Shown here: one piece after another, positions 5,583-52,815 of the stretch
Layout of the letters: every line of letters begins with the position of its first letter
How positions within the stretch are numbered: position 1 is the first letter of the stretch
IMG/VR virus record: IMGVR_UViG_3300005805_009925
Location: 1,284-65,283 of that record
Strand: one strand, 5' to 3'
DNA length: 64,000 bases
Source: a virus
Lineage: Duplodnaviria > Caudoviricetes
The notes under the pieces: generated by a model
What the model saw: only the letters and a program-made list of their open reading frames with translations
The model's database searches: none
Told to the model about the DNA's origin: nothing
Program-made: the position numbers and the translations under genes

Positions 5583-5857
5583 ACTAACTCCGTATGAAGT
5601 GCGCAGTAGTGATCCCACTTGCTAATCATCTTCGGTTCGTCAGGGTGAATCATGCACAGGTACAGCGTAATCGTCGTATCCTCGAACTCATTCTCCAGTA
5701 CTTCGTCAGTGCAGTGCGCACATGTATCGCAACGTGGGTGCATCTCAGATACATCCTTATCGCTCAGCTCTTCCGTGTTAACCCACGTACCGAACTTGTC
5801 TTCTGCAAACAAAGCACAGGCATCCTTGCCTTCTACGTACATCCTGTAGGTTTTCAT
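5579..5857 (-). CDS. hypothetical protein with CxxC
   Basis: 92 aa; 4-nt ATGA overlaps with neighbours. Confidence 0.6.
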   Translation of the reverse strand: MKTYRMYVEGKDACALFAEDKFGTWVNTEELSDKDVSEMHPRCDTCAHCTDEVLENEFEDTTITLYLCMIHPDEPKMISKWDHYCALHTELV

Positions 5858-6264
5858 GCCCTACCTCCATAGACGTTCGTATAGCTTTCTATTAGCATGA
5901 CGTTTTTATTAGGCTCAGCCAACTTATATTTAACCGCCATACGTTCCTTACGCTCTGACTCAACCACCTTCTTGCGCTGCTGGATCTCCTCAATCACGCT
6001 CTTAGCACGGGTAATCTTCTTACCAGGTCTAAAGCCACTACCAAGCATCTTCTTACGCCACTGACGGCAGGAAGCTACAGCGAGTTCGATATTGTCCCGT
6101 TCGGTATTGACGCGGACAGTCTTCGTTACACACTTCCCGTCAATGGTAACGTGCGTCAGGACATACTCCCTGCCCTGGATGTTGCGCAAATAGATGTATG
6201 TCTCCAGCTCCAGAGACTTACCGTCCTTTTCAAACTTGGCAACAAGTGCCTCTTCCCGTGTCAT
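5854..6264 (-). CDS. hypothetical basic protein
   Basis: 136 aa; translationally coupled. Confidence 0.65.
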   Translation of the reverse strand: MTREEALVAKFEKDGKSLELETYIYLRNIQGREYVLTHVTIDGKCVTKTVRVNTERDNIELAVASCRQWRKKMLGSGFRPGKKITRAKSVIEEIQQRKKVVESERKERMAVKYKLAEPNKNVMLIESYTNVYGGRA

Positions 6265-7882: not shown

Positions 7883-8039
7883 GACTACACTAGTTTTCAA
7901 AAATTGGAAATCCGTGTGAGGTGACTAGCCTACTATTAGCCACCCCCTGGGTGTGAGGTGCACCCCCCTCGCGCGTGCGTGCGTGCGCGATCGTGCAGCG
8001 TGCGTGCACGGTTCCATTAGAGCGCAAGGTAGTGTAGTC
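7883..8039. other. GC-rich divergence element, candidate packaging/terminus or origin site
   Basis: 10-bp inverted repeat gactacacta (7883-7892) / tagtgtagtc (8030-8039) enclosing gtgtgaggtg x2, C-runs and GCGT tandem repeats. Confidence 0.45.
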
Positions 8040-8046
8040 TTGTTGG

Positions 8047-8074
8047 CAATACAACCACATCGACCGTTAAAGTG
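8047..8074 (+). repeat. 28-bp early-region motif, copy 1
   Basis: caatacaaccacatcgaccgttaaagtg. Confidence 0.7.
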
Positions 8075-8170
8075 TAGGTTATGTTGGAAAACAATATTAC
8101 CTACAAGCAGACAAGGTTCACTACGCAAAAACGAACCTATACTTTTCCTAAACATTACAAGGGTGTCCCT

Positions 8171-8581
8171 ATGGATACGTTCAACGCAGATTCGCAGATA
8201 CTGTACTGCGAGATATTTGATACACTGGGTGAGATACTTCCGCGAGAATTGGAGGTAGGTAACCAGACTGCCGAGTTTGACGAGTTTCACTGGATTCACG
8301 GGTGGATAGACTATAACTTGAGTGAGTCTGATGTTGTAAATAACTTCGGTATTTACTTTGACGAGTCTGAACCAATAGTTTATCTGTTCTTATCAGACTG
8401 TTTTGGACGCAGACTAGAGTTTAAGTTATGCGCTATTGAACCAGACTACACGACTGGCAACGTCCAATTGCAGACTGCACGCAATATCTGCCAGTTTATC
8501 AAGAACAATGTTCCTGCAATTGTGAATCACTACAACGTGAATCCAGATAGGATACCTACAATTGGCAAGAACGTAGACTGA
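8171..8581 (+). CDS. early hypothetical protein
   Basis: AAGGG RBS before ATG 8171; acidic; ends ...NVD*. Confidence 0.7.
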   Translation: MDTFNADSQILYCEIFDTLGEILPRELEVGNQTAEFDEFHWIHGWIDYNLSESDVVNNFGIYFDESEPIVYLFLSDCFGRRLEFKLCAIEPDYTTGNVQLQTARNICQFIKNNVPAIVNHYNVNPDRIPTIGKNVD

Positions 8582-8589
8582 TAGTATAA

Positions 8590-8635
8590 ATACCTAGCTG
8601 GCGTTTTAGTCTGGGTTCGATTCCCAGATAGGTAT
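8590..8635 (+). ncRNA. anticodon-less tRNA-like element 1
   Basis: ataccta-gctggcgttttag-tctggg-ttcgatt-cccaga-taggtat: 7-bp stem plus 6-bp T-stem with TTCGATT loop. Confidence 0.7.
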
Positions 8636-8663
8636 CAAAACAACCAATTTGACCGTAATAGTA
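8636..8663 (+). repeat. 28-bp early-region motif, copy 2
   Basis: caaaacaaccaatttgaccgtaatagta. Confidence 0.8.
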
Positions 8664-8684
8664 ACAATCACAACGGAGGCGCAT

Positions 8685-9029
8685 ATGCGCGAACCAACAA
8701 ACATACTGTTCGACTGCTTGACTGGTACAATAGGTAGCTTCTTGTACACTGACGTTATCGAAGATATTGTACGTGAAAACAACAAGTTTGACCGTAGCTA
8801 CGGCAATAGGTCAAGGAAGTACAGTGTTGATAGGACGGCAGAAGAATTACGTACCTATTTTCAGGACGAATTGGAACATAACGATATTGACGCGAAGAGT
8901 TTAGCTGACCTGCTATGTTCTTGGGCATTGTATGGTTGCGTAACTCTTGAGGAACGGCAGTCTATTACTTTTGACAACATAGACTGGAACAAGCTGGCAA
9001 AACTGCTGATAACTGAATACGTAGACTGA
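8685..9029 (+). CDS. early hypothetical protein
   Basis: GGAGG RBS, ATG 8685; ends ...YVD*. Confidence 0.7.
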   Translation: MREPTNILFDCLTGTIGSFLYTDVIEDIVRENNKFDRSYGNRSRKYSVDRTAEELRTYFQDELEHNDIDAKSLADLLCSWALYGCVTLEERQSITFDNIDWNKLAKLLITEYVD

Positions 9030-9063
9030 CAACCAATTTTTCACAATTTTCAAGGGCGGAAGT

Positions 9064-9324
9064 ATGAGATTCAAAACTTCGCAGGAATTAGCAGACTGCA
9101 TCGACTATCCTAGCACATACACCAAATACTTCATGAATACAGATGGTGAAGTATGCTGCGGATCTTGTGCGACAAAAAATAAGCAGCAAATTGTCCAGGA
9201 ATTTGAAGAAAATACTGGCTATGTGAATAGTCCTAGGATTCAATATGCAGATTTCAATTTTGAAGATACAAGTCTGTATTGCGACTGGTGCAATGAACGT
9301 ATTGCGCCAGACTATGTAGACTGA
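9064..9324 (+). CDS. early hypothetical protein with two CxxC
   Basis: AAGGGC RBS; CCGSC and CDWC; ends ...YVD*. Confidence 0.7.
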   Translation: MRFKTSQELADCIDYPSTYTKYFMNTDGEVCCGSCATKNKQQIVQEFEENTGYVNSPRIQYADFNFEDTSLYCDWCNERIAPDYVD

Positions 9325-9327
9325 TAG

Positions 9328-9355
9328 CAAAACAACCAGTCTGACAGTATAAGTA
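9328..9355 (+). repeat. 28-bp early-region motif, copy 3
   Basis: caaaacaaccagtctgacagtataagta. Confidence 0.85.
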
Positions 9356-9389
9356 ACAACCAATTTTCACAATTTTCAAGGGCGATAGA

Positions 9390-9755
9390 ATGGACTTCCA
9401 ACATGCACTGCGACTGCTTAACGGTAAGCATAGCAAAACAATAGCACACTGCACGTATTTAGAGACTGGCTGGCACACTGGTACACGTCCAGAACACATG
9501 CACCCAGAGAACCCAGACTTCATCAAGTTATACTACCATAGCACTGCAGTAGTTACGTACTATCCTAATGGCAGCACAAAGATCACGTCTGGGGGATATT
9601 TGACTGCGACAACCAAAAAACGCATCAATAAGTACAGTAACGCAGGTATTCACCAGAAAAACTACGTATGGTACTATCCAGACGGCAGAAAGTTTAGGGA
9701 CGGAGATACACTGACAGCAGACGGCTACATACTATCTATTCCAGATAGGTATTGA
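9390..9755 (+). CDS. conserved early phage protein
   Basis: AAGGGC RBS; SGGYLTATTKKRIN pattern. Confidence 0.7.
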   Translation: MDFQHALRLLNGKHSKTIAHCTYLETGWHTGTRPEHMHPENPDFIKLYYHSTAVVTYYPNGSTKITSGGYLTATTKKRINKYSNAGIHQKNYVWYYPDGRKFRDGDTLTADGYILSIPDRY

Positions 9756-9756
9756 G

Positions 9757-9784
9757 CAGAACAACCAGTCTGGCAGTATAAGTA
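9757..9784 (+). repeat. 28-bp early-region motif, copy 4
   Basis: cagaacaaccagtctggcagtataagta. Confidence 0.85.
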
Positions 9785-9816
9785 ACAACCAACAACCAAT
9801 TTTTAAGGGCAGAACA

Positions 9817-9960
9817 ATGAAGACAATAGCAAGATCTTTTGATAGCATTAAGCAGGCAGACAAATATCAGTTTTGGTTATACGGAAAGTATGATAGCGTC
9901 AAGCTAGTCCAGAGTCCTATGTTTACAGAGCAGGGTATCTACGTCTGGATAGTAGGTTGA
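9817..9960 (+). CDS. 47-aa early protein (not in ORF track)
   Basis: AAGGGCAGAACA-ATG; MKTIARSFDSIKQADKYQFWLYGKYDSVKLVQSPMFTEQGIYVWIVG*. Confidence 0.7.
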   Translation: MKTIARSFDSIKQADKYQFWLYGKYDSVKLVQSPMFTEQGIYVWIVG

Positions 9961-9969
9961 ACCTACACA

Positions 9970-10013
9970 CTACGTGAACGGCAGCCACCAAGGTTCGAGT
10001 CCTTGGCACGTAG
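9970..10013 (+). ncRNA. anticodon-less tRNA-like element 2
   Basis: ctacgtg-aacggcagcca-ccaagg-ttcgagt-ccttgg-cacgtag. Confidence 0.7.
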
Positions 10014-10041
10014 CAAAAGAACCAGTACGACCGTACTGGTA
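10014..10041 (+). repeat. 28-bp early-region motif, copy 5
   Basis: caaaagaaccagtacgaccgtactggta; this copy is also self-complementary (accagtac/gtactggt). Confidence 0.85.
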
Positions 10042-10072
10042 ACGATTCACAACCAATTTCAAGGGCAGAAGT

Positions 10073-10390
10073 ATGAACGCAGATGCAAATATCTTACGCA
10101 AAGTAAGACTGGCAGTAGCTAACAAGCTAACCAAAGACTATACTTGGGACGACAACCAACATACTATGGCAGAAGAGTGCCTAGCTTATGCAGCTGAAAA
10201 GTATGGGCTCAAGTATTGCGATATTCAGTCCGTAGAAATTGACGGAAACTATCGTGAACCTATCTACTACCTCAACACTGGCGATATTTACGACCAGACT
10301 GTATACGTGCACCTATTCGCAGCTATTGCAGGCACGCACAAGATCAAGGTAGGTTCAATAGGTGCAATCCTTGAACGGAGTCTGGCATGA
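10073..10390 (+). CDS. early hypothetical protein
   Basis: AAGGGC RBS; YLNTGDIYDQT pattern. Confidence 0.7.
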   Translation: MNADANILRKVRLAVANKLTKDYTWDDNQHTMAEECLAYAAEKYGLKYCDIQSVEIDGNYREPIYYLNTGDIYDQTVYVHLFAAIAGTHKIKVGSIGAILERSLA

Positions 10391-10455
10391 TCCTATACTT
10401 GGCAGTTTTCGTTATCTGTTTAGCCGTTGTTGCATACGTATGGCGCAACGGCTAG
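10387..10455 (+). CDS. possible 22-aa hydrophobic peptide
   Basis: ATGA overlap; MILYLAVFVICLAVVAYVWRNG*; coincides with a strong hairpin. Confidence 0.35.
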   Translation: MILYLAVFVICLAVVAYVWRNG

Positions 10456-10456
10456 G

Positions 10457-10484
10457 CAAAACAACCAGTACGACCGTAGAAGTA
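10457..10484 (+). repeat. 28-bp early-region motif, copy 6
   Basis: caaaacaaccagtacgaccgtagaagta. Confidence 0.85.
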
Positions 10485-10515
10485 TAACCAACACTAACTT
10501 TTCAAGGGCAGAACA

Positions 10516-10698
10516 ATGGACACATACACGGCAGTCGGTATCGCAGAAGGATTCATAGAGGTAGACAGCGAAGAGCAGGCAATAGCTGCTTGGCAGTACC
10601 TGGTAGACACTGGCATATGCTGGCAGTTACAGGGCAGATTCGGTCGAACGGCTATGGATCTTATTGAAGCAGGCATTATTGACGGTCCCTGCGAATAA
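10516..10698 (+). CDS. conserved small phage protein
   Basis: AAGGGC RBS; AWQYLVDTGICWQLQGRFGRTA pattern. Confidence 0.75.
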   Translation: MDTYTAVGIAEGFIEVDSEEQAIAAWQYLVDTGICWQLQGRFGRTAMDLIEAGIIDGPCE

Positions 10699-10704
10699 CC
10701 ACAC

Positions 10705-10750
10705 AACCTATGCTGGTGCATTGTGGCATGTTCGATTCATGCCATAGGTT
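10705..10750 (+). ncRNA. anticodon-less tRNA-like element 3
   Basis: aacctat-gctggtgcattgt-ggcatg-ttcgatt-catgcc-ataggtt. Confidence 0.7.
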
Positions 10751-10797
10751 CAAGGGCAGATACACTGCCACAATACTAACAATTTAAGGGCTAAACA

Positions 10798-11046
10798 ATG
10801 CGTACAACCTGGACGGAAGAGCAGGCAGAGAACATGCACGACGACTTCCTGCGTGACTGCACTGAATCAGTGGACGGAACAGTGAACATAGCAGGACTGC
10901 GTTACGACGTAGCGCATGCGTTCAAGAGACTGGATCCTATTGCATACAGAGAGTCTTTCTTATGCTGGCTCAGCGATAACTGTATGGACTGGGACGATAA
11001 AGCAGGAGTCTATTACTATGAGAGCTACAATGAAGCACCATACTGA
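10798..11046 (+). CDS. early hypothetical protein
   Basis: AAGGGC RBS; LDPIAYRE pattern; acidic. Confidence 0.7.
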   Translation: MRTTWTEEQAENMHDDFLRDCTESVDGTVNIAGLRYDVAHAFKRLDPIAYRESFLCWLSDNCMDWDDKAGVYYYESYNEAPY

Positions 11047-11049
11047 TAG

Positions 11050-11077
11050 CAAAACAACCAACACGACCGTAGAAGTA
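11050..11077 (+). repeat. 28-bp early-region motif, copy 7
   Basis: caaaacaaccaacacgaccgtagaagta. Confidence 0.85.
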
Positions 11078-11110
11078 TAACTAACATTCACTTTTCTAAA
11101 GGGCAGAACA

Positions 11111-11455
11111 ATGGCATACAACGGATGGACAAACAGCGAAACCTGGACAGTCAACCTATGGTGCGAGCAGGAGATTTACAATATGGCCAAGGATGTATTG
11201 TCAGAAAACTTGGACGACTATGATCTTGATGAAGAGTCTGGTGCTGATGAATACATACGAGACACCAGAGAAACTATCAAGGAATACTTTGAAGACTACG
11301 TAGATAACTCTGGCATTGACGGTGTATTCCGTGATCTTCTGCCACTGCAAAAGATTGACTGGCACGAGCTCGCAGAGCACCACTGCCAAGAATTGTGGGA
11401 AGAAGCAGTCAAAGAACATAACGAGAACAAGGAGGATGACAATGAGCAGGACTAA
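11111..11455 (+). CDS. conserved acidic phage protein (YNGWTN.ETW type)
   Basis: N-terminal YNGWTNSETWTVNLW; strongly acidic. Confidence 0.75.
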   Translation: MAYNGWTNSETWTVNLWCEQEIYNMAKDVLSENLDDYDLDEESGADEYIRDTRETIKEYFEDYVDNSGIDGVFRDLLPLQKIDWHELAEHHCQELWEEAVKEHNENKEDDNEQD

Positions 11456-11687
11456 TTATCTGGTAACAGTTACCGATACGTTCGGTAACGACGTAAACTA
11501 CGGATGGGTACGTAAGTACAACGTGCAGGCAACGACGGAGCTGGCTGCTATTAGACTCGTGTCTAGGCAGCATGGATACAAGGGATTCCGTCGGTCGTAT
11601 GAATCATGGGATCATGTTCGTTATGATCTTCGGTCGTGCAACATTTGTGCATTTGTTGAACCAGTTACAGAAGGGGCAGAAGCGTGA
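11442..11687 (+). CDS. early hypothetical protein
   Basis: AAGGAGG RBS, ATG 11442; VTDTFG..VNYGWVR pattern. Confidence 0.65.
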   Translation: MSRTNYLVTVTDTFGNDVNYGWVRKYNVQATTELAAIRLVSRQHGYKGFRRSYESWDHVRYDLRSCNICAFVEPVTEGAEA

Positions 11688-11917
11688 AAGTATACATGAA
11701 TAATAAGGAACGCACACCAATCTGGTGCGCATCAAACAGTAAGCATACAGCGTTCCTATACTTCGAGCCGTTCAACTGCAACGATCAAACACCAAATTGG
11801 CTATATGAATTTTGCCAGGCATTAAATAAGCAGGCCATATATCCTACTGGCAATAGACGTGAGAACCTTATTGACTGGCAAAACTATTATCTAACAACAG
11901 AAGGGGCACAGGCATGA
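11684..11917 (+). CDS. early hypothetical protein
   Basis: AAGGGGC RBS, GTG start, coupled. Confidence 0.6.
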   Translation: MKVYMNNKERTPIWCASNSKHTAFLYFEPFNCNDQTPNWLYEFCQALNKQAIYPTGNRRENLIDWQNYYLTTEGAQA

Positions 11918-12219
11918 AGCAAACGCAGGCAATCAGTTACAGAAAATACTACTGGGATGCAGACGTAAAAGCGTGGAAGTTGCAGCGCGAATCGCAGAGC
12001 ATGGACGACTGGGACTCATTAGATACGTGGGCTTTCCGAACTATACTTGGCGAGCGTATACAAAAAGAAGTTGAAGAGTTACACTCTGCTAACAGCGTGT
12101 GGAGCATCAACAACCTATGGAAAGAAACAGAATCGGGTGACAGGATTCGTTTTGAAGTGACCCCACGGTCAGCAGTATTAGAAAAACATAACGCAATACA
12201 GGAAGGGGCACAGTCATGA
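11914..12219 (+). CDS. early hypothetical protein
   Basis: AAGGGGC RBS, coupled. Confidence 0.65.
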   Translation: MKQTQAISYRKYYWDADVKAWKLQRESQSMDDWDSLDTWAFRTILGERIQKEVEELHSANSVWSINNLWKETESGDRIRFEVTPRSAVLEKHNAIQEGAQS

Positions 12220-12530
12220 GTAAGCAGACGTTTCATTTCAACATCGAATCAAAGCAGACGATATGGTATACCTATCCAGTAACCGTAACTGCCGAGAGCG
12301 AAGAGCAAGCAAAGAAAATACTGTGTGAGGCTCTAGAAAAGATACAGGAGCTTCCAGATTTGCATACGGACGAGGTAAATGTAGGCTACTTTTGTGAGGA
12401 GGTAGAAGGGTCACGCGAATACATGACACCGCGAGAGAACTACGGTATGCCTACGATAGTGGTCATGGACGATGAAACTTGCGAAGAGATTTACAGTAAC
12501 GAACTAATTTCACTAGAGGAAAGGGAATAG
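12216..12530 (+). CDS. early hypothetical protein
   Basis: AAGGGGC RBS; VTVTAESEEQA pattern. Confidence 0.65.
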   Translation: MSKQTFHFNIESKQTIWYTYPVTVTAESEEQAKKILCEALEKIQELPDLHTDEVNVGYFCEEVEGSREYMTPRENYGMPTIVVMDDETCEEIYSNELISLEERE

Positions 12531-12532
12531 TC

Positions 12533-12712
12533 ATGCTAATAGGCATCGAGTTCAAGCGTACCAAGGTACACATCATCGAAGAAGGTAGGACCGTCTGGTT
12601 CTGGCGCATTGCGCCTTACGTCCGAGGCGTAGACTCTACCAAGGTAGGAGCTGCCGTATTCTTTGTAGTAGCAATGTCAATCATATACCTTATCGGGGAG
12701 AATGTGCGATGA
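12533..12712 (+). CDS. 59-aa protein with C-terminal hydrophobic segment (not in ORF track)
   Basis: MLIGIEFKRTK...GAAVFFVVAMSIIYLIGENVR*; fills the gap exactly. Confidence 0.55.
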   Translation: MLIGIEFKRTKVHIIEEGRTVWFWRIAPYVRGVDSTKVGAAVFFVVAMSIIYLIGENVR

Positions 12713-13029
12713 GTAAAGTACCTGTAATAGCAGCTGGCGAGAAAGACTATATCACACTGGTCTTCCCTACTATTCCTGCCGATGAGTCTGGAAACTACAT
12801 GACCTGTTGGGATAAGTACGCAGGGCATGGATCATCGAGCACTGGCTGGCTCAGCAAACAGCCAATACATACAGACCTAGATGCCAGAGAATTGCTGGCA
12901 CAGTACGTCCATTACTATCATGAAGGTAACGAGAATGAATACGGGCTGGTAGATAACGTCAGCCAGGATTATCACGAACAGCGCAGGGCAGAAGCTGCCA
13001 AGTGGCGCACACTGATTGCGAGTAACTAA
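12709..13029 (+). CDS. early hypothetical protein
   Basis: LVFPTIP...YMTCW...GHG pattern; coupled. Confidence 0.65.
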   Translation: MSKVPVIAAGEKDYITLVFPTIPADESGNYMTCWDKYAGHGSSSTGWLSKQPIHTDLDARELLAQYVHYYHEGNENEYGLVDNVSQDYHEQRRAEAAKWRTLIASN

Positions 13030-13301
13030 TGATTGAGTGGCAAGTAAATATCCTAGAGACTGCGCCAAGTGAATTGGCCAAGAGCATGGTGATTGGCTAC
13101 GTTAATATGCGTGACGTGGCCGAATCACTGAACAGCATCTTCATGTGCGTAAATGCCACGATGTTGGATAGAAAGATTGGCGGAGATCCAGATCTTCCAC
13201 CACCAGAAGACGACATTCCTAGTATGTGGACTGAAGTTATGACTGATGACGAGCTGAAAGATACACGAGAGTGGCTCATCATGCTTGCCAGTTACGAGTA
13301 A
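13029..13301 (+). CDS. hypothetical protein
   Basis: TAATG coupling; 90 aa. Confidence 0.6.
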   Translation: MIEWQVNILETAPSELAKSMVIGYVNMRDVAESLNSIFMCVNATMLDRKIGGDPDLPPPEDDIPSMWTEVMTDDELKDTREWLIMLASYE

Positions 13302-13318
13302 CATACATATCTTTGCAC

Positions 13319-13540
13319 ATGAAACTAAAGCGTTTAAGCTGGGCGGCTAACAGGGCAGACAACCTGATCTGCACGTACAGTGTAGACATCACTGATAACA
13401 AAGACTTCAGAGTCAGTAGCCCTACATTCCAGTGGTATCCTGCCGACATATTCCGTAGCAAGAAGACAGCTATGGAGGCGTGCCAACGTCATTATGAATC
13501 AATGGTTTACAGTCTGTTTGAGGACACCGATGGAGAATGA
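13319..13540 (+). CDS. hypothetical protein
   Basis: start moved to ATG 13319; KKTAMEACQRHY pattern. Confidence 0.55.
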   Translation: MKLKRLSWAANRADNLICTYSVDITDNKDFRVSSPTFQWYPADIFRSKKTAMEACQRHYESMVYSLFEDTDGE

Positions 13541-13745
13541 GAAAGAAGATTTAATCAAAACAGTAAGAGCCGTAGCACACTACGCTATGGACAGGGCTTA
13601 CATTGCAACGATGGAACAGAACAAGTATGCAGTATCGACATGGCATCACGTAGCTTCTACGCTACTGGATCTTGTCGAGCAGGCCGAGAGCTGGGATGAG
13701 GATTCCATACGTCTGATTCAGAGCCACAAGGATAGGATGCCATGA
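13530..13745 (+). CDS. hypothetical protein
   Basis: GAGGA RBS, ATG 13530. Confidence 0.55.
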   Translation: MENEKEDLIKTVRAVAHYAMDRAYIATMEQNKYAVSTWHHVASTLLDLVEQAESWDEDSIRLIQSHKDRMP

Positions 13746-13924
13746 ACAGGGACATAGCTTACTGTGCTGGCAAGAACTGCCCGAAGAAGGCAGAGTGCAA
13801 GCGATACATGGATCAACCTATCGGTGACAAATATATCTCACGGTTCATCACACCACCGTGGGATTCCAAGAAGAAGAAGTGCGAGCATTACATTCCATTA
13901 TATTCACAGGGAGAAAAGGTATGA
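13742..13924 (+). CDS. small Cys-rich phage protein
   Basis: DIAYCAGKNCPKKAECKRY pattern. Confidence 0.7.
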   Translation: MNRDIAYCAGKNCPKKAECKRYMDQPIGDKYISRFITPPWDSKKKKCEHYIPLYSQGEKV

Positions 13925-14400
13925 GGACGATTCTATCACTGGCACTGGGCATGGTGCTGGTCACTGGCGCACTGGCGCAGGAGGTCGATGTTTGCGGTGA
14001 GGTATATGCACCGTGGGGTAGCTCAACTGCCGACGTTATCAGGGCAGGAACCAAGGCGAACCTTAACTTTAAGGAGGTAACCAAGCAGGATGCTCAAGGC
14101 ATTACGCAGGTGACGTTCGTCAACGGATCGATAGCCAGGGTATTTACTATGCTAAAGGGTAGGTATGTTAGTTTCAACCTACTTCACATGGACAAGGATG
14201 AGTACAAGCGCAACAAGTATACGTCGAATCAGATGCTGAACGTCATGTCGCAGGATGCCAAGCTGAATAACGATGCAGGATGGATGATTACGTGCGGAGA
14301 ATCTACGCTGAAAGCAACGATGGAAACCAAGTCAGATCAGGCTTCGTTCTTTCTTATGAGTCTTACTGCAATTAAAGGTGTAGTGCAAAGCGGAGATTAG
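13921..14400 (+). CDS. putative exported protein
   Basis: start 13921 gives signal-peptide-like MRTILSLALGMVLVTGALA-QE. Confidence 0.6.
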   Translation: MRTILSLALGMVLVTGALAQEVDVCGEVYAPWGSSTADVIRAGTKANLNFKEVTKQDAQGITQVTFVNGSIARVFTMLKGRYVSFNLLHMDKDEYKRNKYTSNQMLNVMSQDAKLNNDAGWMITCGESTLKATMETKSDQASFFLMSLTAIKGVVQSGD

Positions 14401-14426: not shown

Positions 14427-14463
14427 AGGGGTGACTGCATAGCGCGGTCGCCCCTTATTTATT
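14427..14463 (+). terminator. terminator closing the early region
   Basis: aggggtgac/gtcgcccct stem followed by tatttattt. Confidence 0.6.
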
Positions 14464-14475
14464 TCGGAGAATACA

Positions 14476-15945
14476 ATGGCTAAACAACGAATAGACTACC
14501 TCAAGGTAGACCGACTGGATATTCAGGAGACGCTGGTCGCAGGCGGAACGAACATTGATATTGCTACTCTTGGTTCTGGTACCGATGAGAAGGCAAAGGT
14601 ATCATCGAATGATACGACCCCAGGATTTCTGAATGGGAAGCTGGTGGCAGGAACCAATGTTACTCTCACAGAGAATAACAACGGTGGCAATGAGACGCTG
14701 ACAATTAGTGCAAACTTTACAGACGCAGATGACAAGTCAAAAGTATCTGCGAATGATACGACCGCTGGTTTCCTGAATGGCAAACTAGTAGCTGGAACAA
14801 ATGTTACTCTCACAGAAAACAATAACGGTGGCAATGAGACACTTACCATCAGTGCAACAGTACCAGTAACGTCAGTCAATACACTAACAGGTGCAGTGAC
14901 TCTTACAGCAGCCAACGTAGGTGCAGCCCCAACATCACACACTCACGCTGCGTCCGACGTTACTTCAGGTGTGTTCGCAACAGCACGACTTGCTTCAAGT
15001 GGAACAGCTTCTGCGTCTACCTACCTACGTGGAGATCAGACGTGGGCTACGGTAGCTTCGGGCGGTGGATTGACAGGTACGAACTATGTCTATGTTGCAG
15101 CAGATGGAACAGATTTGCAAAATGGAACAGCTCTTTTGAATGCCTATACATCAGCCGTAGCAAAGACGCCATCAGCAAGTAAAAGAGTTACCGTTATTGC
15201 AGCGGCAGGTCGATACGACTTTAACGGCAGTACCTTAACTATGAATACCGCTTATGTTGACTTGGTATCGTTAGATGGTAACCGTAGTGTGATTTTAACT
15301 AACGGTAGTATCAATGTTACTGCCAACAATGTATTTGTTTGTGGCATAGACACATCGAATCAACGATTTCAAATTGCAACAAACCTTACCAATCTATACG
15401 TCAAAAACTGCATAGCGCTTGGTAGTAATTCTTTTGGTGGTAGTGGGATTGTTGTCTCAGGTAAGTTTGAAGATTGCGACGCTGGCAGCAATGGGTTTGG
15501 TGGTGAGTGTACTGCATCGGGAACATTTGTCAGATGTACAGGTGCAAATAATTCTTTCGGTGGGTTTGGTGGTACTGCATCGGGAATCTTTACAGACTGT
15601 ATTGCTTCTGATTATGGCTTCGCTGCAAATGGTGGAGCTGTATCATCAGGTACATTTTATAGATGCCGCGGTGGTTTCTTATCTTTTGGAGGCAGTTCAT
15701 CAATTTCATCAGGCACATACTACAACTGCATTGGAGGACGCTATGCCTTTGGTGGAAGTGCCCAAGTCAGAGGAAATTACTACAACTGCATTGGAGACGA
15801 AGGTTCTTGGAATCCCGATACTCCATCTAACTTTACAGGCAAATTGTATTACTGCAGAAAACTGGTTGGCGCATTTGATACGGTTGCAGTTGGTGGTCGC
15901 GTTTACTATTCAGTAGACGGCAATGGAAATGTAAACAATCAATAA
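14476..15945 (+). CDS. tail fibre/spike-like protein 1
   Basis: Gly/Thr/Asn/Ser-rich; duplicated N-terminal module; C-terminal FGG..G.F..C beta-helix-like repeats. Confidence 0.7.
   Translation: MAKQRIDYLKVDRLDIQETLVAGGTNIDIATLGSGTDEKAKVSSNDTTPGFLNGKLVAGTNVTLTENNNGGNETLTISANFTDADDKSKVSANDTTAGFLNGKLVAGTNVTLTENNNGGNETLTISATVPVTSVNTLTGAVTLTAANVGAAPTSHTHAASDVTSGVFATARLASSGTASASTYLRGDQTWATVASGGGLTGTNYVYVAADGTDLQNGTALLNAYTSAVAKTPSASKRVTVIAAAGRYDFNGSTLTMNTAYVDLVSLDGNRSVILTNGSINVTANNVFVCGIDTSNQRFQIATNLTNLYVKNCIALGSNSFGGSGIVVSGKFEDCDAGSNGFGGECTASGTFVRCTGANNSFGGFGGTASGIFTDCIASDYGFAANGGAVSSGTFYRCRGGFLSFGGSSSISSGTYYNCIGGRYAFGGSAQVRGNYYNCIGDEGSWNPDTPSNFTGKLYYCRKLVGAFDTVAVGGRVYYSVDGNGNVNNQ
14584..14856 (+). 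repeat. internal duplication, 144-nt period
   Basis: KVS(S/A)NDTT(P/A)GFLNGKLVAGTNVTLTENNNGGNETLTISA twice (14584-14712, 14728-14856). Confidence 0.9.
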
Positions 15946-16224: not shown

Positions 16225-17694
16225 ATGCACCCAAGAACCGAAGTCATACAATCAGGTAAGGTTCGTAACCTAGATGTTACGGAGTTGCTAACATACAGAG
16301 GAGTAGAAGTAGTACCAGGAGGAGGCGGTGGAGAACTCCCTATCGGATTCCAGTATGTTACTAATAGTCAGGCAATTAATCCCTATCTACCTGTATATAC
16401 CAGCCTTTTAGGCAATGCTGCAAAGTGGATCTGGTCGCAAGCCATTAACACTTTAATCAAATCAGGGATGGAAGGTTACGCATATACCCATTACTTTCCT
16501 CCAATAAACGTAGCAAACCAGTATAGGGTTATATTTGTGACTGGTGGAGTTGCTAATGTAGACAATAGTGTTTGCTCCTTTAGGTATACATCCACAACTG
16601 GAACAAGTTGGAGTACATTAGACTTGTGGACTGCTGGATCAGGAACTGCAAAATTTCGAGATCAAGCTAGTTATTTGTGTAGAGATTTATCCAATGGGGA
16701 TGTCTACCAACTTCCGACCTTAATTACAAATTTTATTTACAAAACTTCTGGAAGTACAGTTACACGATCTACCCTGCCACTAACTAGCCAATTCGACTCA
16801 TACGCCACAGCTTCATTGGCTGCGAGCAATGGAGTTATTTCAGTTACAAAAACGAATGCTGAGACAGGTGTTGTTACTCGCTGGTACTCATCCGATTTTG
16901 TTAATTGGCAGCAGGCAACTCTTGCAGCAGGACAGTCTGTATTAGCAGGTATGACAGATGATAGATTCTTTTCTTTTGCTGGGACCAGTACCGTCTGGTT
17001 CATGAATACAAGTGGAACAACGCAGTATTTTTCTTCTGACAATGGCGTAACATACACTTCATCTACCTTACCATTTACGCCAAGCTCATCTAGCTACGCA
17101 TTTTGTGTGAGTTCTGGTAAATATATACTTGGGAATAATTCAGCCACACTCTATACTTCTACTGATTTATCTAGCTGGACAACAGTATCAACTGGTCTTA
17201 CTAACCGTTCTGTGTCTTTGTTTGCTATCGATTCTACCGAGGTTTTTGCTTTAAGCTATTCAACGGCAACGAATAGCTTATTCTATTCGTCAGATAGTGG
17301 TGCAACTTGGAGTACCCTGACTACTAATCTGCCAAGTACGCATACGCAAAAACAAATCTTAAAAATTGGCAGCACGTATTACATCGTAACTCGTGATAGT
17401 AATTCTGGACTCGATGCAAGAATGGCTCTTTATAGCAGCACCGACAGAACTAATTGGACTTTGATATTCTCAGCTTATACCGTACTGAGTAGTACGGCAT
17501 CGGTTTCTAAAAATAAATTTAGTGCAAGTAATACTGCAACACATTGGAATTTTTGCGTCGATGTCGTGAACAACAATGTTGCCGTTGTAACTGGAAGATC
17601 TTTGCAGTATTACGATGGAACAAGCTGGACGCAGCATTCAGAATTGGCTGCTGCATTAACATTACCACCAAATGCATTCGTTAAAATAGCTTGA
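16225..17694 (+). CDS. tail fibre/receptor-binding-like protein 2 with BNR-type repeats
   Basis: repeated YSSDxGxTW / STDxxxW beta-propeller (Asp-box) motifs; Ser/Thr-rich. Confidence 0.7.
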   Translation: MHPRTEVIQSGKVRNLDVTELLTYRGVEVVPGGGGGELPIGFQYVTNSQAINPYLPVYTSLLGNAAKWIWSQAINTLIKSGMEGYAYTHYFPPINVANQYRVIFVTGGVANVDNSVCSFRYTSTTGTSWSTLDLWTAGSGTAKFRDQASYLCRDLSNGDVYQLPTLITNFIYKTSGSTVTRSTLPLTSQFDSYATASLAASNGVISVTKTNAETGVVTRWYSSDFVNWQQATLAAGQSVLAGMTDDRFFSFAGTSTVWFMNTSGTTQYFSSDNGVTYTSSTLPFTPSSSSYAFCVSSGKYILGNNSATLYTSTDLSSWTTVSTGLTNRSVSLFAIDSTEVFALSYSTATNSLFYSSDSGATWSTLTTNLPSTHTQKQILKIGSTYYIVTRDSNSGLDARMALYSSTDRTNWTLIFSAYTVLSSTASVSKNKFSASNTATHWNFCVDVVNNNVAVVTGRSLQYYDGTSWTQHSELAAALTLPPNAFVKIA

Positions 17695-18040: not shown

Positions 18041-19000
18041 ATGGTTACATTCACAAGCGCAGCAGCAGTAGACGAGGGGCTGGAGCACTACTCACTACGA
18101 CCAAGCAAGATGACAGGGCGTCCACTTGCCGACACGACTGTACGCAGAATACGCTACTTCATGACACCTAAAGCCAAGGACGTATTCACGTCTGGGCTTA
18201 CTGGTCATGAGCTTATGATTGCTATTGACAGGGCGTTCGAGACTGAATCGAAGACGCACCGTAGCATAGGCATAATCATGATAGCACAGTTCGCAAACTA
18301 CTATGGACTGATTGACGACGAGGTGTATGCTTGGTGGTCTAAGGAAGGCGACAAGAGATATAAGCCAAACAAACCAGTAGCAGAGCGCATCATCCAACGG
18401 GATAAGCTCAAGCGTTACTTCGACCGCTTCCTTCAGGATGACCCTAATCACTTCACTGCAGCTAGGTTATATTGTTTCAGTAGCATCCTTCTGCTAACAG
18501 GAGCGCGTCAGCACGCCATCGTAGAGCTGAAGATGGATGAGTTCACCCTTACAGAGACGGAGATGACCATCAACATCAAGCGTCTCAAGTCTGCCAACTC
18601 AGCGATGCATACAATCCATGTTCCACTGGATGTGCTTCTTCCCAACGGCAGACCTTTCGGTGAGGCTCTCTATCGTTATCTTTCCCTGCGGTTCAACAAC
18701 GAATACTTCTTCATGGACACGGAGAACAGGCACGGCTCAGGACTTCACATGTCACTTCGCCATCAGATGGAACGTCATGGTAAGCTGGCAGACTGTGGTC
18801 ACATCACACCGCACATGTTTAGGTTTACCTGTGCGAGTATCATCAGCGATCACATTGGTGTACGCCAAGCACAGCAACTTCTCGGTCATACAAACATGAA
18901 GACAACGATGCGATACGCTGGACACTTCTACGATAATGTATCTAAATCAACAATCTCTAACGGCTTTAGTTCATTCACCAATCACTACAAGGCACAGTAA
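18041..19000 (+). CDS. tyrosine recombinase/integrase (XerC/D-like)
   Basis: LTGAR, H-x-x-R (PHMFR), LLGH and RY catalytic set. Confidence 0.92.
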   Translation: MVTFTSAAAVDEGLEHYSLRPSKMTGRPLADTTVRRIRYFMTPKAKDVFTSGLTGHELMIAIDRAFETESKTHRSIGIIMIAQFANYYGLIDDEVYAWWSKEGDKRYKPNKPVAERIIQRDKLKRYFDRFLQDDPNHFTAARLYCFSSILLLTGARQHAIVELKMDEFTLTETEMTINIKRLKSANSAMHTIHVPLDVLLPNGRPFGEALYRYLSLRFNNEYFFMDTENRHGSGLHMSLRHQMERHGKLADCGHITPHMFRFTCASIISDHIGVRQAQQLLGHTNMKTTMRYAGHFYDNVSKSTISNGFSSFTNHYKAQ

Positions 19001-34088: not shown

Positions 34089-37000
34089 TCAGCGCTCGTA
34101 CTGGTTTATTGGTTTCCAATAGAATCCGAAATATTCCATCTGGAACGAACCAGAACCTTCCACATTAAACGTATGGCGTTCACCACGGTTTTGGCTAGGA
34201 GAACTTGTCTGTCCAGCTGATTCCGTAGGCACTGCCATGATTTCGCCTGTCACGCTGTAGTTAGCTCTAGGCGAACTAGGTCGAGTATCTACGTAGCCAT
34301 ACTGCCATGCTGTATCTGTCGTAGCCGTCTCACCCATTGGACTTGTATGGACAACTCCACGTAGGATTACTGGGTCGTCAGATGCAGCTATGTAAGCAAA
34401 GACCTTACGAATACGCTTGAGTACAGTCTTGTCTTCTGCTGTCCAATCCTTTGAGCTCCAGAACACGCGGACAAATTTTGTTACTGGTGTAATCTGGTAT
34501 GTCAGTGAGATAGGATTATACGTGAACATCAAGTAGTCGTCATTCGGCTTATCTAGATTATTGTCAACCTTAGTCGGTGATTCAATAAACATAGATATAC
34601 GCATAAACTCCATTGACGCTTCAGCTGCCGATGGTACAAAAGGCAGAAGGTAGTTCTTTGTACGTGGTGTAAGTGCCTCAGCAGAACGGAGTTGGCCTAA
34701 TGTATTCGTATAGTACAGACGGCTGTAAACCCTTGGTGCTCTTTGGGTTGGAGCTACTGAATATAACTGCTGCATCCATGTTGCTGGATCAGTAAAGTAT
34801 ACTGCATCATCCATATAGCGATACTTGGTAGCTAATCCAGTATCTATATTGATAGCATAGGTAATTCCACGTAGCTGACGAAGACCCTTATTATCTGTAA
34901 TAGTTATTCCAGATGTGTTAGTTCCTTCAGAATTTCCTTCGTTACTTGATGTAGTCATGACTGGAATTGTCAGGTACAACTCACGGTATGTAGGATTCCA
35001 ACCACAAGATGCGTCACGGATAGCTGGATTCATGACTCCGTTTTGCGCTGAGCGTAAACGAAGTTGCAGTTCTTCTGAAAACTTACCATCTACCTTCGAC
35101 AGAACATTGTTATCATACTTGTAGAAACCTGCCCACGATAGGAAGTAAAGTGTATTGTTTACAGTGATAACTGTATTCGGAGCAATACAGCCTACGTTGT
35201 TTGATATTTCGTCAACACGCGAGATTGGAACTTGAGATCCTTGTACTGCCAACCTGTGGATGCTTCGCTCCTTTAAGACAATCAAGTTGCCATAAAGCAT
35301 GGCTAGTCCAGTAATCTGGTCTCCGTCGCCTGCACGAACTTCCATCAGTGATGGCAACTTAATCTTGTTTGGCTGATATGGCTCTGACCAGCGGAGTCCT
35401 GCTGGCATGTCATCTTCGTTCTGGAATAACTGCTTAATAGGCAGCCTGCCAATAGATGGAAGATCATTATCGTAGAATATACCTTCGTCCTCTGGTTTAA
35501 TTGTTCCTATCTTTTCAATCCATTGAGGACCAGATCCTTCATCATAGCGCCCCGTAATATCAAGGATAATTGGCTGGCAGTAAGAACTAGCAAGACCACG
35601 GTCTAGCGCTGGCGCTGGTGTGTCAAAATAGTTCCAGAAGAAATTCATTCTTGTACCGTCATATCCTACGTCACCACCATGGAATGCCTGAATGACTGAG
35701 TTGGGATAGTAGATTACTCCATTGTATTCTACAACGCCCTGAGCTACAAAGTATACATTGCCAACTGTTGCGGTGTTTGTTGACTTCCTACCAGTAAAAG
35801 CTACTGTAGGCAAAGGTGCTGGCGTATTCAACCTATAAATATTCAACTGCTCGATTGCAGGATCATAAGCCGAAGGCAAACCAAACATCACAACTTTATT
35901 ATTGAGCGCAGCTGTGCGATCTATCTGTCCTGAATAAGATGCCAATGAGTATGATCGAGCTTGGTCGTTATATGCAGTAAAGTAGTATAGGTATCTATGC
36001 GGAATATTAGTTGGCGCTGCACCATCGACGACAAGTCTATATGACCACAGTCTTTCAAGCTCAATGTTCGTACCTACATTAAGATTCTTGTGTGCAGTTA
36101 CGGTAGCATCAGATGGATTTGTAGTCTCAATCTTAACTGCATTTCTTGGTGAGTGTGGCTTGTACGCTTCCTTGATGTTCGCATAGAATACACGCTCATT
36201 CAAAGGAAGGCAGAACCTAGACTTGAGAGGATTTGTAAAACCATCATAGTCAGGTACACTATAAGAATAGTCAAGCTCGCTACTCTTTACGTCATCAAGA
36301 AACTCAACTTTTGAATCTACTGGATTACCAGTTGTTCCGTCACGAACTATATCGACTGCTTTAACGAGACCGTATTCATGCGGTTGCCATGCATTATCAT
36401 GACTTGCACGAGTTCGGAAGATAAGCAACTGGCGTGCACGACGTGGGATACGATTAGATGGAACAACAATCTTTACATGTGGAGCTTCAAAAAGAAGTGA
36501 AGCTGGGACATACATAGAAAGTTGCTCTGGTATTGTCAGACGTTCACCAACACCAGATAGAATTACACGGAGATTTTTGAATCTAATTTTAGTATCAGGA
36601 GTACCAAGGGAACTAGAATAAATCCAATTAGAATAGTTGTTAGTTTGAACTCCATTCGCCAAAGCTCCAAAAGAATATGTTTCTTGACTAGCACCTGCAA
36701 ATGGATAAGCATCTTGATATGCCCTAGCATTACCTCTAACTAATTTGTCAGTATAGTTTTGTGGTGTATAGTTATAGATTTGTTGTTGGAATGTCCAAGT
36801 TCCAACATCACCAAAATCACATAGTTGTATTTGACCTGTACCAGATAAAGCTATTCTTGATGTTACTTCCGCTGGTATAGATGGTTTAAGATAAAGCAAT
36901 CTATCAGACTCTTTCTTAACACCGCGCACTACAGTCATGTTGCGGAATTCCCATGGCTTGTATGGAGGGAATACACTAGCATCATCATCAGGCCAGTTAT

Positions 37001-50985: not shown

Positions 50986-51349
50986 CCTTGCTTGGCAATC
51001 TTGGTGGTACGTGTGTTGCGGATACATTTACCGTAATAGATCCGCCTTCTTCCAATTGAAGCTCTCGACGTTTGATGATGTGGTTAGCTATCGAGGTTAA
51101 GCTATTTACGGCTTTAATTCTTATGTCGTCGTCAGCAGCATTGCCTATTATATCGGTAAGCCTATCTATAGAAAGAAGCATGCCAGCAGTAGCACCTTTC
51201 TGTAAAGCATCCAAATCAATGTCTAATCCGTCAATGATTCTATTGACAGCTAGTACTATTTGGTTGTCTGTAGATCGGATTCCACTTGAAGATATTTGCA
51301 TACCCTGCAAGTCATCTTCTGTGATACTTTTAGGTTTTGCTTTTTTCAT
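50978..51349 (-). CDS. probable terminase small subunit
   Basis: 123 aa, helical, directly upstream of and overlapping terL. Confidence 0.6.
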   Translation of the reverse strand: MKKAKPKSITEDDLQGMQISSSGIRSTDNQIVLAVNRIIDGLDIDLDALQKGATAGMLLSIDRLTDIIGNAADDDIRIKAVNSLTSIANHIIKRRELQLEEGGSITVNVSATHVPPRLPSKDE

Positions 51350-51385
51350 GTTCTAATTTACGACAAAATATCAGAAATGTAAAAT

Positions 51386-52288
51386 ATGGCATTCGACTGG
51401 AATCTACTAACGCAAGCACTTGGTGCTGGTGCGTCCATGATACCTGGAATTGGTCCTCTAGGTGGACTTGCTACTGGAGTATTGCAAGGACTTGGTGATG
51501 CCTTTGGTATTAGCAGTGGTGGTGGCAGTGGACTGCAATCACCAGAAACGCAACAAGGATTAGACAAGCTGTCCCAAATCCAGCAGATGGCATCATACAC
51601 CTCGACTGGTGCAGAAGGCGCTGCTGCTAACCGAGAATCGGCAGAAGCTGCCCGTAGATTTATTGGCCAGCAAACAGCAGAAGGACGACTTGCATCACAG
51701 CAACAGCAAGCACTTGGTTCGGCTGCATTAGGTGGCGCTCAGGCTACAACAGATTTAGCACGTAGCGCAGCCATGATGAATCTTGGCAACCAGAATCGCA
51801 ATCTTATGCAACAGGCTGCAGCCGCTGGTGGAAGTCCTGCGGCACTGGCTGGAATAGCTTCAAACCTTGGACAAGCCAACACTCAGACTTTGAACTCATT
51901 GGCACAACAGGGAGCGGCCGCTCAGCAAGCAGGACTATCCCAAGCTGGTCAAGCGTTTGCAGCATCCGAGCAAGTACGCAATGCAGATTTAGCTCAGCAG
52001 CTAGCTAACTTCCAGCCGTATGCTTTGCAGAAGTTTGGTGGAACTACAGCTGGTGGACTAGGACAGCTTGGTCAATATCAGCAGACTATGGCTCAGACTA
52101 ATGCGATGGAAGATCCACTTGCACTTCTCAAGCAGATGGGTGGCAAGGGAGCTAACTTGCTACAGGATCAGCCTTACAGTGAAGCTACAATTAACGATAT
52201 GATTCAGAAGGCGCTTGGTCGTTTTGGTGCACCTCAAGCACCTTATACTGGACCTTTAAGCCCAGGATATAAATACGGTAAACGGTAA
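51386..52288 (+). CDS. DNA pilot/ejection-like protein
   Basis: Gly-rich hydrophobic N-terminus (LGAGASMIPGIGPLGGL) then A/Q-rich coiled coil. Confidence 0.6.
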   Translation: MAFDWNLLTQALGAGASMIPGIGPLGGLATGVLQGLGDAFGISSGGGSGLQSPETQQGLDKLSQIQQMASYTSTGAEGAAANRESAEAARRFIGQQTAEGRLASQQQQALGSAALGGAQATTDLARSAAMMNLGNQNRNLMQQAAAAGGSPAALAGIASNLGQANTQTLNSLAQQGAAAQQAGLSQAGQAFAASEQVRNADLAQQLANFQPYALQKFGGTTAGGLGQLGQYQQTMAQTNAMEDPLALLKQMGGKGANLLQDQPYSEATINDMIQKALGRFGAPQAPYTGPLSPGYKYGKR

Positions 52289-52290
52289 AT

Positions 52291-52815
52291 ATGGCACAGT
52301 ACATCCAACACCCAGCGCTTATGGGCGCACAAATGGCTGGTGATCTTACTAAGCAGCGTATGAACTTAGTTGGTCAGGGAGTAACACAAGCAGTAGATGC
52401 TCTTAATCGTCAGGCTGCTGCCGATGCCGCCAGCATGGATAAATTAATGCAGTATCAAAGTCTCATAAAGGCTAACATTAATCCTTTGACAATGCAGAAC
52501 TATGCACAAGGAACTGCACCATCTTTAGATTTTATGAAGAATTTCATAGAATATGATATGCTAAAGAAGGCTGCTCGTGGTGGGTACAATCCTACGAAAG
52601 TTCCTGGTACTCCAGGATGGTATACTGGAGCTCCTAATCTTACTCCTGCTGCTGAAACACCTATTGTATCTGGTGTGTACAACCCTGAGTACCAGCCTAC
52701 TACTGGAGCAACATTTGAAATTCCTATTTCACAAAGAAATTATCCAGTACAGCAACAACGATCTTTGGCTAGGGATATTCTTAATCTAGATATTTTTGGT
52801 ATACAAAATCCATGA
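52291..52815 (+). CDS. possible second internal virion protein
   Basis: A/Q/G-rich, coupled to the pilot-like gene. Confidence 0.5.
   Translation: MAQYIQHPALMGAQMAGDLTKQRMNLVGQGVTQAVDALNRQAAADAASMDKLMQYQSLIKANINPLTMQNYAQGTAPSLDFMKNFIEYDMLKKAARGGYNPTKVPGTPGWYTGAPNLTPAAETPIVSGVYNPEYQPTTGATFEIPISQRNYPVQQQRSLARDILNLDIFGIQNP

Follow-up and report, generated by a model that had tools for sequence, protein, structure and literature searches.

A private, oriented 28-bp box between early-gene cassettes of an apparently temperate phage is a candidate regulator-binding site

Introduction

What does a 28-bp motif do that recurs, always in the same orientation, between the small early genes of a phage? 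The locus that raises this question lies in a 64,000-nucleotide stretch of DNA (the window), which comprises bases 1284 to 65283, or 98%, of the 65,283-bp IMG/VR record IMGVR_UViG_3300005805_009925, labelled a provirus; positions are those of the window. A first-pass annotation made from the sequence alone had reported seven gap-free copies of the motif (here called the box) between positions 8047 and 11077 and had offered three explanations, namely, a promoter read by an RNA polymerase or sigma factor of the phage whose gene would lie outside the window, a repressor site, or a homology handle for the shuffling of cassettes as in the PeSL elements (early promoter stem-loops) of T4-type phages. 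It had further proposed a motif scan of the genome and its relatives, a comparison of gene content between relatives, and a search for a polymerase or sigma factor gene in the rest of the genome. We assessed these explanations by motif statistics, comparison with a relative, and searches for a protein that might read the box. The box may be an oriented DNA-binding site for a putative phage-specific regulator, similar to a stoperator and embedded in a PeSL-like portable module, a reading to which we assign a probability of roughly 40%.

Results

The + strand block between 8.0 and 14.4 kb consists of small open reading frames (ORFs) and opens at a divergent non-coding control region (7.6 to 8.08 kb). 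Six + strand copies of the box (at 8636, 9328, 9757, 10014, 10457, and 11050) had 0 to 3 mismatches to the consensus, and shuffled sequences gave no match (0 of 100). With a position weight matrix (PWM) built from these six strong copies, they scored 42 to 47 bits, compared to a shuffle maximum of 13.5 bits. The seventh reported copy, at 8047, proved far weaker (18.6 bits), and an eighth, borderline site was found at 8775 (14.7 bits). All remaining sites scored at or below the shuffle maximum, no site stood out on the minus strand, and no further copy was present on either strand across the whole record outside 8.0 to 11.1 kb. The seven intergenic copies all lie on the + strand, as do the early genes, and all within 8047 to 11077, at a spacing of 257 to 692 bp (previously given as 286 to 692 bp). 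Copy 1 lies ~10 nt downstream of GGTAGTGTA (8028 to 8036). The sites are as follows.

8047-8074, + strand: weak, divergent copy 1 (PWM, 18.6 bits), its geometry unlike that of the strong copies
8636-8663, + strand: strong copy, starting at the base after tRNA-like minihelix 1 and 21 nt before the ATG at 8685
8775-8796, + strand: borderline partial copy (14.7 bits) inside the gene at 8685-9029, lacking the 3' block
9328-9355, + strand: strong copy, 3 nt past the TGA of the gene at 9064-9324
9757-9784, + strand: strong copy, 1 nt past the TGA of the gene at 9390-9755
10014-10041, + strand: strong copy directly 3' of minihelix 2, the sole copy with its own 8-bp hairpin
10457-10484, + strand: consensus copy, 1 nt past the TAG of a 22-codon hydrophobic ORF (10387-10455)
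11050-11077, + strand: last strong copy, heading a coupled operon (11111-14400)

Mean pairwise identity was 0.80 in the box, compared to 0.31 and 0.39 in the upstream and downstream flanks of 28 nt, respectively. Contrary to the first-pass annotation, conservation does not run along the whole length: positions 12 to 15 and 23 to 24 are variable, and the conserved blocks are 1 to 11, 16 to 22, and 25 to 28. The box is asymmetric and bipartite, with blocks 1 to 11 and 16 to 22 about one helical turn apart and a variable gap of fixed length between them; its left block closely repeats the leader word AACAACCA. Two pairs of copies (9328/9757 and 10457/11050) are similar well past the box edges. 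Outside the record, a viral contig scan for the box gave 38 loci with one match each and no multicopy locus, a metagenome scan gave no match, and a genome scan gave 27 single matches, which is at chance level.

A stop codon ends 0 to 4 nt before each strong copy, except where the copy directly adjoins the 3' end of a tRNA-like minihelix, and all intergenic copies fall within the gap from a stop codon to the following Shine-Dalgarno (SD) sequence and ATG, in agreement with the first-pass annotation. Downstream of the box follow a G-poor, A/C-rich leader, an SD-like AAGGGC word, and an ATG 21 to 34 nt after the box, a distance that is fixed at 31 to 34 nt in five copies; such a leader is present at eight early genes. 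A tRNA-like minihelix precedes two of the seven copies (8636 and 10014, which, as noted before, start right after it), and the other five have no upstream hairpin. The unpaired AACCA that the box would place after the tRNA-like fold is correct as sequence, and nothing supports a function for it. The description of the box-bounded units as single-gene cassettes holds for some of them: units contain one or two genes, and the last copy stands at the head of a translationally coupled operon of 3.3 kb, which extends up to a hairpin at 14427 to 14455. The other parts of the boundaries are listed here.

8590-8635, + strand: tRNA-like minihelix 1 (acceptor-like stem plus T-arm-like hairpin), adjoining the copy at 8636; not called by ARAGORN
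9030-9063, + strand: boundary lacking the motif, which by alignment equals the unit at 9325-9389 minus a core of 24 to 28 nt between two AACAACCA words
9356-9389, + strand: example of the G-poor, A/C-rich leader with SD-like AAGGGC
9970-10013, + strand: tRNA-like minihelix 2, likewise built of an acceptor-like and a T-arm-like stem and adjoining the copy at 10014
10706-10749, + strand: tRNA-like minihelix 3, followed by an AAGGGCA word instead of the box
14427-14455, + strand: terminator-like hairpin at the end of the early rightward operon

Relatives with an early region were sought by using the portal protein, three early proteins, and two database proteins introduced below (P0001 and P0002) as queries. 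Portal searches yielded five related contigs, among which the early region was present only in G005 (66,456 bp, complete), whose portal is 87% identical and whose integrase is 65% identical to that of the phage studied here. No copy of the 28-bp box was found in the G005 genome. In equivalent slots, G005 carries four copies of an unrelated box of ~33 bp, followed by a similar A/C-rich leader. This box consists of two direct repeats of the 9-mer CAATATCCG, 13 nt apart, and one exact reversed 9-mer is present in the G005 control region, where ~0.003 occurrences are expected by chance (~0.5 over the whole G005 genome). The word GGTAGTGTA was found only in the control regions of both phages (once in the present record), each time no more than ~10 nt from a box copy or half-site. 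Two tRNA-like minihelices are present in G005 as well, and its box follows neither of them. The motif scan of the record and of G005 confined the box to 8.0 to 11.1 kb of this record and left it absent from G005; by sequence, the box type is private to this phage, and a close relative displays clean replacement of one box by another.

Several minor features of the two control regions and boundaries were noted alongside. In the control region of the present phage, what looked like a partial copy in reverse orientation, to the left of the GC-rich element, was not significant (p ~0.24). A 24-nt non-coding word, GTTTTCAAAAATTGGAAATCCGTG (7893 to 7916), is conserved between the two control regions, as is GGTAGTGTA (8028 to 8039); the remainder of these regions differs, with C-runs and GC-rich tracts rearranged. 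Of the five minihelices in both phages taken together, three have an AAGGGCA(A/G) word after them (here at 10750 to 10760), as does one G005 box; the G005 stretches concerned are on the reverse strand (34881 to 34986, 35305 to 35452, and 36025 to 36130), and there the word lies 35 to 45 nt upstream of the ATG and is accordingly not an SD sequence. It could be what remains of a lost cassette, or a signal in its own right. As to the cassette genes, the 22-codon strongly hydrophobic ORF (10387 to 10455) overlaps the stop of the gene at 10073 to 10390 (ATGA), the gene at 9064 to 9324 encodes an 86-aa protein with the CxxC ... CxxC spacing typical of a zinc ribbon, and most other cassette proteins are strongly acidic (isoelectric points of 4.1 to 5.5), as expected of host-takeover or anti-defence proteins.

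Gene content at the boundaries differed between the two phages. About 10 ORFs are present in 8081 to 11455, only two of them have G005 homologues, and the order of these two is swapped. Three adjacent, unrelated genes share the 3' end GTAGACTGA, and the 3' end of the gene at 9390 to 9755 includes the 3' half of minihelix 1. When the first ORF was searched against 1.8 billion proteins (profile-free search), the match P0001 was 76% identical and began at ORF residue 31. In P0002, the first 30 residues match codons 1 to 30 of the first ORF (8081 to 8170), and the rest is homologous (47% identity) to the gene at 9390 to 9755, the fourth cassette. These two matches indicate that one upstream stretch leads into different cassettes in different relatives and that the junction falls at the SD/ATG. 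The ATG at 8171, which has an SD-like AAGGGT in front of it, is the probable start of the first cassette here. The segment from 8081 to 8170 represents either an N-terminal tag common to these proteins or a conserved leader whose frame stays open by chance. The proposal of a homology handle for cassette shuffling is supported by the swapped order, the precise deletion variant at 9030 to 9063, the shared 3' ends, and the P0002 junction, and the sequence comparisons support the view that the box sits at seams where small genes swap between related phages.

In a consensus scan, no sigma-70-like hexamer pair was found at any copy, and no TAnnnT hexamer occurs at a common offset within −45 to +70 of the copies; the earlier statement that the box does not match the TTG-N19-21-TAnnTTGC promoters found elsewhere agrees with both results. 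A TAnnnT hexamer lies 11 to 12 nt upstream of the copies at 8047 and 9328. Sigma-54, extracytoplasmic function (ECF) sigma factor, Bacteroidota −33/−7, NtcA, and LexA boxes, compared by eye, did not fit across the copies. The box and its flanks are unstructured and G-poor, no conserved RNA fold was found, and the leaders fold like shuffled sequences, except for the private hairpin of the copy at 10014. Rfam gave no match (ribozymes included) in the box region or the whole window. Pairing of the box with a trans-acting RNA or ribozyme was also considered and rejected, there being no Rfam ribozyme and no complementary sequence elsewhere in the genome. Dyad symmetry is absent from the box, and a test for integron attC or dif-like sites revealed no inverted arms around a central spacer and no foldable hairpin other than that of copy 10014; since tyrosine recombinase core sites need dyad symmetry, the box is not such a core site. 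Judged from the sequence, the box is not a host-type promoter, not a structured RNA, and not a member of a known RNA family.

We also looked for a protein that could read the box. Pfam and PHROGs scans of ~85 ORFs (essentially all) gave no polymerase, sigma factor, or helix-turn-helix (HTH) protein; no HTH, ribbon-helix-helix, or repressor family was recognised in the proteome scans, and neither PF00940 nor Sigma70_r2 matched in six frames of the record. Three giant proteins (1768, 1189, and 3438 aa) are encoded on the minus strand, none of which contains a DxDxD motif, has a Pfam match, or has a PDB relative by sequence. Language-model features place the 3438-aa protein near the LPD38/39 polyvalent-protein clusters and the 1768-aa protein near crAss muzzle-like proteins; the 1189-aa protein has only four relatives, all unannotated. 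The giant proteins look like a polyvalent/DarB-type protein and a crAss muzzle-like tail protein. A crAss-type two-barrel polymerase was rejected, as the giant proteins lack DxDxD and their motif-B-like matches have the wrong spacing and order. Hairpin promoters of an N4-like virion RNA polymerase, an idea prompted by the 3438-aa ORF, were likewise rejected: there is no PHROGs or Pfam RNA polymerase, conserved copies lack a hairpin, and the nearest atlas clusters of the 3438-aa protein are LPD (polyvalent-protein) clusters. In the ~5 kb by which relatives extend beyond the record, a primase-helicase and no polymerase was found. A phage-encoded polymerase, a very divergent one aside, is therefore unlikely, and with 98% of the record in the window and no such gene in the rest of the genome or the extra ~5 kb of the relatives, the explanation as a promoter for a polymerase or sigma factor encoded outside the window is not supported.

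Three small proteins searched by sequence against PDB gave no match. One lead to a regulator is the basic 136-aa protein (isoelectric point, 9.8) encoded at 5854 to 6264 on the minus strand, which was modelled as a four-stranded sheet plus a helix (predicted local distance difference test score, 60) and had no PDB match at E<=0.001. It is 83 to 92% identical in three short metagenomic contigs and only 26% identical in G005. From its model and these identities, it is a weak candidate for a type-specific nucleic-acid binder.

The record encodes a tyrosine recombinase (integrase; 18041 to 19000) as well as RecE and RecT. By portal, the nearest cultured phages are only ~23% identical. Distant structural relatives are podophages of temperate lifestyle that have repressor switches and a giant DarB-like protein; among the nearest by portal is Serratia phage Parlo, likewise a temperate podophage, which encodes an integrase, regulators of the CI/Cro type, internal virion proteins, a terminal DarB-like protein of 3.7 k aa, and no RNA polymerase. 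With its own integrase, RecE/RecT, and Parlo as a distant structural relative, the present phage plausibly is temperate.

Discussion

The reader of the box would appear to be type specific, orientation specific, and independent of RNA folding, and G005 has direct repeats and a reversed half-site; for these reasons, a DNA-binding regulator is preferred here over a core promoter or an RNA element, with the reversed half-site in particular arguing for recognition of DNA rather than RNA. The putative regulator is most likely an immunity-type repressor. What we infer is the existence of a protein bound to the box, its nature as a repressor, and a block of transcription on binding. It would act once near the early rightward promoter, at the weak copy 1, and again at the six cassette boundaries in the early operon, where the boxes would serve as roadblocks or local operator sites. 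Each boundary would be a portable module made up of a stop codon, an optional tRNA-like minihelix, the box, a G-poor leader, an SD sequence, and an ATG. The direct repeats of box plus leader every 0.26 to 0.7 kb could supply short homologies to RecE/RecT, by which cassettes would be lost, gained, and reordered.

As the phage looks temperate and lacks a polymerase of its own, stoperator-type operators are the closest working models. Phages L5 and Bxb1 of cluster A, P1/P7 with C1, and phi105 have multiple asymmetric, oriented, phage-specific operators, which are intergenic, serve at an early promoter as well as to block elongation, and are not the same in heteroimmune relatives (PMC1934351, PMC6550527, PMC9283540). 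Like the box, stoperators are non-palindromic, occur many times per genome along the direction of transcription and in short intergenic gaps with one at an early promoter, and have a consensus that differs between related (here presumably heteroimmune) phages. However, stoperators are 13 to 17 bp long with 20 to 30 sites genome-wide, whereas the box is 28 bp long and bipartite with 7 sites within 3 kb; moreover, the promoter-proximal copy is the weakest here, and a repressor was not recognised. Because of the missing genome-wide distribution and the missing repressor, we do not file the box as a stoperator. The repressor site suggested in the first-pass annotation is nevertheless compatible with the private box, the direct repeats and reversed half-site of G005, and the temperate look of the phage, and it is now the preferred explanation.

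A number of results weigh against a regulator-binding site. No DNA-binding protein of any kind was recognised in the record, and the sole lead to a regulator (5854 to 6264) was modelled with low confidence and gave no significant match by structure. It is the weakest copy that lies closest to the presumed early promoter, the mark of that promoter, GGTAGTGTA, is a guess with no convincing −35 element upstream, and the sites are confined to 3 kb, compared to the genome-wide distribution of L5-type stoperators. The reversed partial copy in the control region of this phage did not reach significance, and an early region from one relative only is too little for box/regulator covariation.

That the boxes are private promoters is rather unlikely. 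Each box would then be a start signal for an unrecognised phage polymerase, a virion-delivered polymerase, or a host RNA polymerase redirected by a factor, and every cassette would have its own start, as with T7 class II or T4 middle promoters. Repeated oriented motifs ahead of phage early genes have mostly proved to be promoters, and this general experience is joined by the high information content over ~28 bp in a single orientation, the fixed 31 to 34 nt to the ATG in five copies, the differing private boxes of relatives, and the fact that the 1189-aa protein and parts of the 3438-aa protein are unexplained. However, neither a T7-like polymerase nor a sigma domain was found, and the giant proteins are without DxDxD and resemble polyvalent/DarB-type and muzzle-type tail proteins. 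A factor-assisted host promoter would call for a −10-like TAnnnT at a fixed offset, which is absent; middle and late genes are not preceded by copies; terminators are absent between copies, and transcription of the minihelices has to come from upstream in any case. In their look, the variable 4-nt gap and the tandem direct repeats in G005 are closer to factor-binding sites than to a core promoter.

Recognition of the box in RNA is unlikely as well. The box would in that case form the first segment of the early messages and be read single-stranded by a phage RNA-binding protein or nuclease, with 5' ends arising from initiation at copy 1, from RNase Z or P cleavage after the minihelices, and from another cut after stop codons. 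The box begins exactly where both adjoining minihelices end and otherwise 0 to 4 nt after stop codons, it is unstructured and G-poor together with its flanks, and the TAnnnT hexamers 11 to 12 nt upstream of 8047 and 9328 would put a start near box base 1. Against these points stand the G005 minihelices, neither of which leads into the G005 box, and the exact reversed half-site in the G005 control region, which would be useless to an RNA reader; nor was an Rfam family, a complementary partner RNA in the genome, or an RNA-binding protein recognised.

It is improbable that a polymerase activity beyond current profiles, for example, in a domain of a giant ejected virion protein (1189 or 3438 aa), reads the box as a promoter. 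If it did, host-takeover cassettes would start independently of host sigma factor, and the relative would have a differently specified enzyme-promoter pair.

Still less probable is a box with no function of its own, the copies being leftovers of duplication or recombination of one intergenic unit, homogenised by gene conversion. The similarity of 9328/9757 and of 10457/11050 beyond the box fits this idea, as do the deletion variants and scars, but non-paired copies are ~80% identical in the box and 30 to 40% in the flanks, and the relative keeps a different box in the same slots. A site-specific recombination site (attC-like or 28-bp dif-like) through which the tyrosine recombinase (18041 to 19000) moves cassettes is barely credible: a 28-bp length, direct repetition around small cassettes, and a recombinase gene 7 kb away would suit it, but the box lacks inverted binding arms around a spacer and a foldable hairpin, and integrases 65% identical between the phages accompany unrelated boxes.

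The module as a whole is best compared with PeSL elements. In T4-type phages, these comprise a sigma-70-like early promoter (−35, 17-nt spacer, −10) with a stem-loop just upstream and an SD sequence and start codon at the 3' end, are located at indel or replacement boundaries, and have been proposed as recombination handles (PMC2839356, PMC4122927). The module described here is likewise a composite (structured element, regulatory box, SD, ATG) between small accessory early genes, has the SD/ATG at its 3' end, and coincides with indel or replacement boundaries between relatives. It differs in that sigma-70-like −35/−10 boxes are absent and in that the structured element is a tRNA-like minihelix, at two of seven copies, in place of a terminator stem-loop; the PeSL host is T4-type, whereas the host here is an apparently temperate podovirus-like phage. 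The PeSL parallel drawn in the first-pass annotation consequently extends to the shuffling boundaries and not to the sigma-70 promoter that defines PeSLs, and since that promoter is lacking, the box is not filed as a PeSL. To judge from its sequence context, the module behaves like a PeSL, with a regulatory repeat conserved where accessory early genes are shuffled; it is particular in having no promoter of host type, in being paired with tRNA-like minihelices, and in the clean replacement of the box in a close relative.

Two other systems invite comparison. In the T7 group, promoters interleaved with RNase III sites punctuate a read-through operon, so that, as here, a long conserved, phage-specific, oriented motif is combined with RNA-processing structures; here, no phage RNA polymerase was found, late copies are absent, the order is processing site and then motif, and the processing element is tRNA-like. 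In attC and 28-bp pdif systems, short repeated sites also delimit small cassettes in a genome encoding a tyrosine recombinase, but the box has no dyad symmetry or hairpin, all copies are direct repeats, and the recombinase is not adjacent.

The box offers a handle on the regulation of an otherwise opaque phage lineage, in which RecE/RecT, an SSB-like protein (single-stranded-DNA binding), and the primase-helicase of the relatives are the only recognisable replication or regulatory proteins. The 28-bp duplex is an immediate bait for the putative reader protein, and the two phages, whose boxes are unrelated and occupy equivalent slots, constitute a natural specificity-swap pair. The principle of PeSLs, in which regulatory repeats double as recombination seams, would extend past T4-type phages and sigma-70 promoters, here in combination with tRNA-like processing elements.

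Other features of the record

TerL, the portal, and the major capsid protein are recognisable among the genes of the record, which also encodes ThyX, a C5 methyltransferase, and a dCMP deaminase. At its very start (within bases 1 to 215, upstream of the window), ~45 nt are ~69% GC; translated in the frame of a truncated phage ORF (MSRAEYYREY...), they give a VDEYGG..GLVT stretch, a putative CorC/HlyC-type host motif; this GC-rich start is either a host junction or an assembly chimera. G001 and G005 continue past the record start (L066, L059:1092-6143) with ~5 kb more DNA, which encodes a DUF6371-Toprim-AAA primase-helicase (695 to 697 aa) and small unknown proteins. The record, given as 100% complete, probably lacks these ~5 kb.

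Two genes of 489 aa follow the early operon, and the pair lies between two terminator-like hairpins. The first (14476 to 15945) has weak tail-protein matches and internal tandem repeats of ~144 nt and ~60 nt (14584 to 14857 and 15420 to 15564), and the second (16225 to 17694) has weak, sub-threshold Pfam matches (Sortilin-Vps10 and Reelin subrepeat B). Four + strand ORFs at 51072 to 52964 form an island within the minus-strand late genes; the sequences upstream of the first two are AT-rich and without an evident SD sequence, unlike most of the genome. This island may be a moron or a unit expressed in lysogeny.

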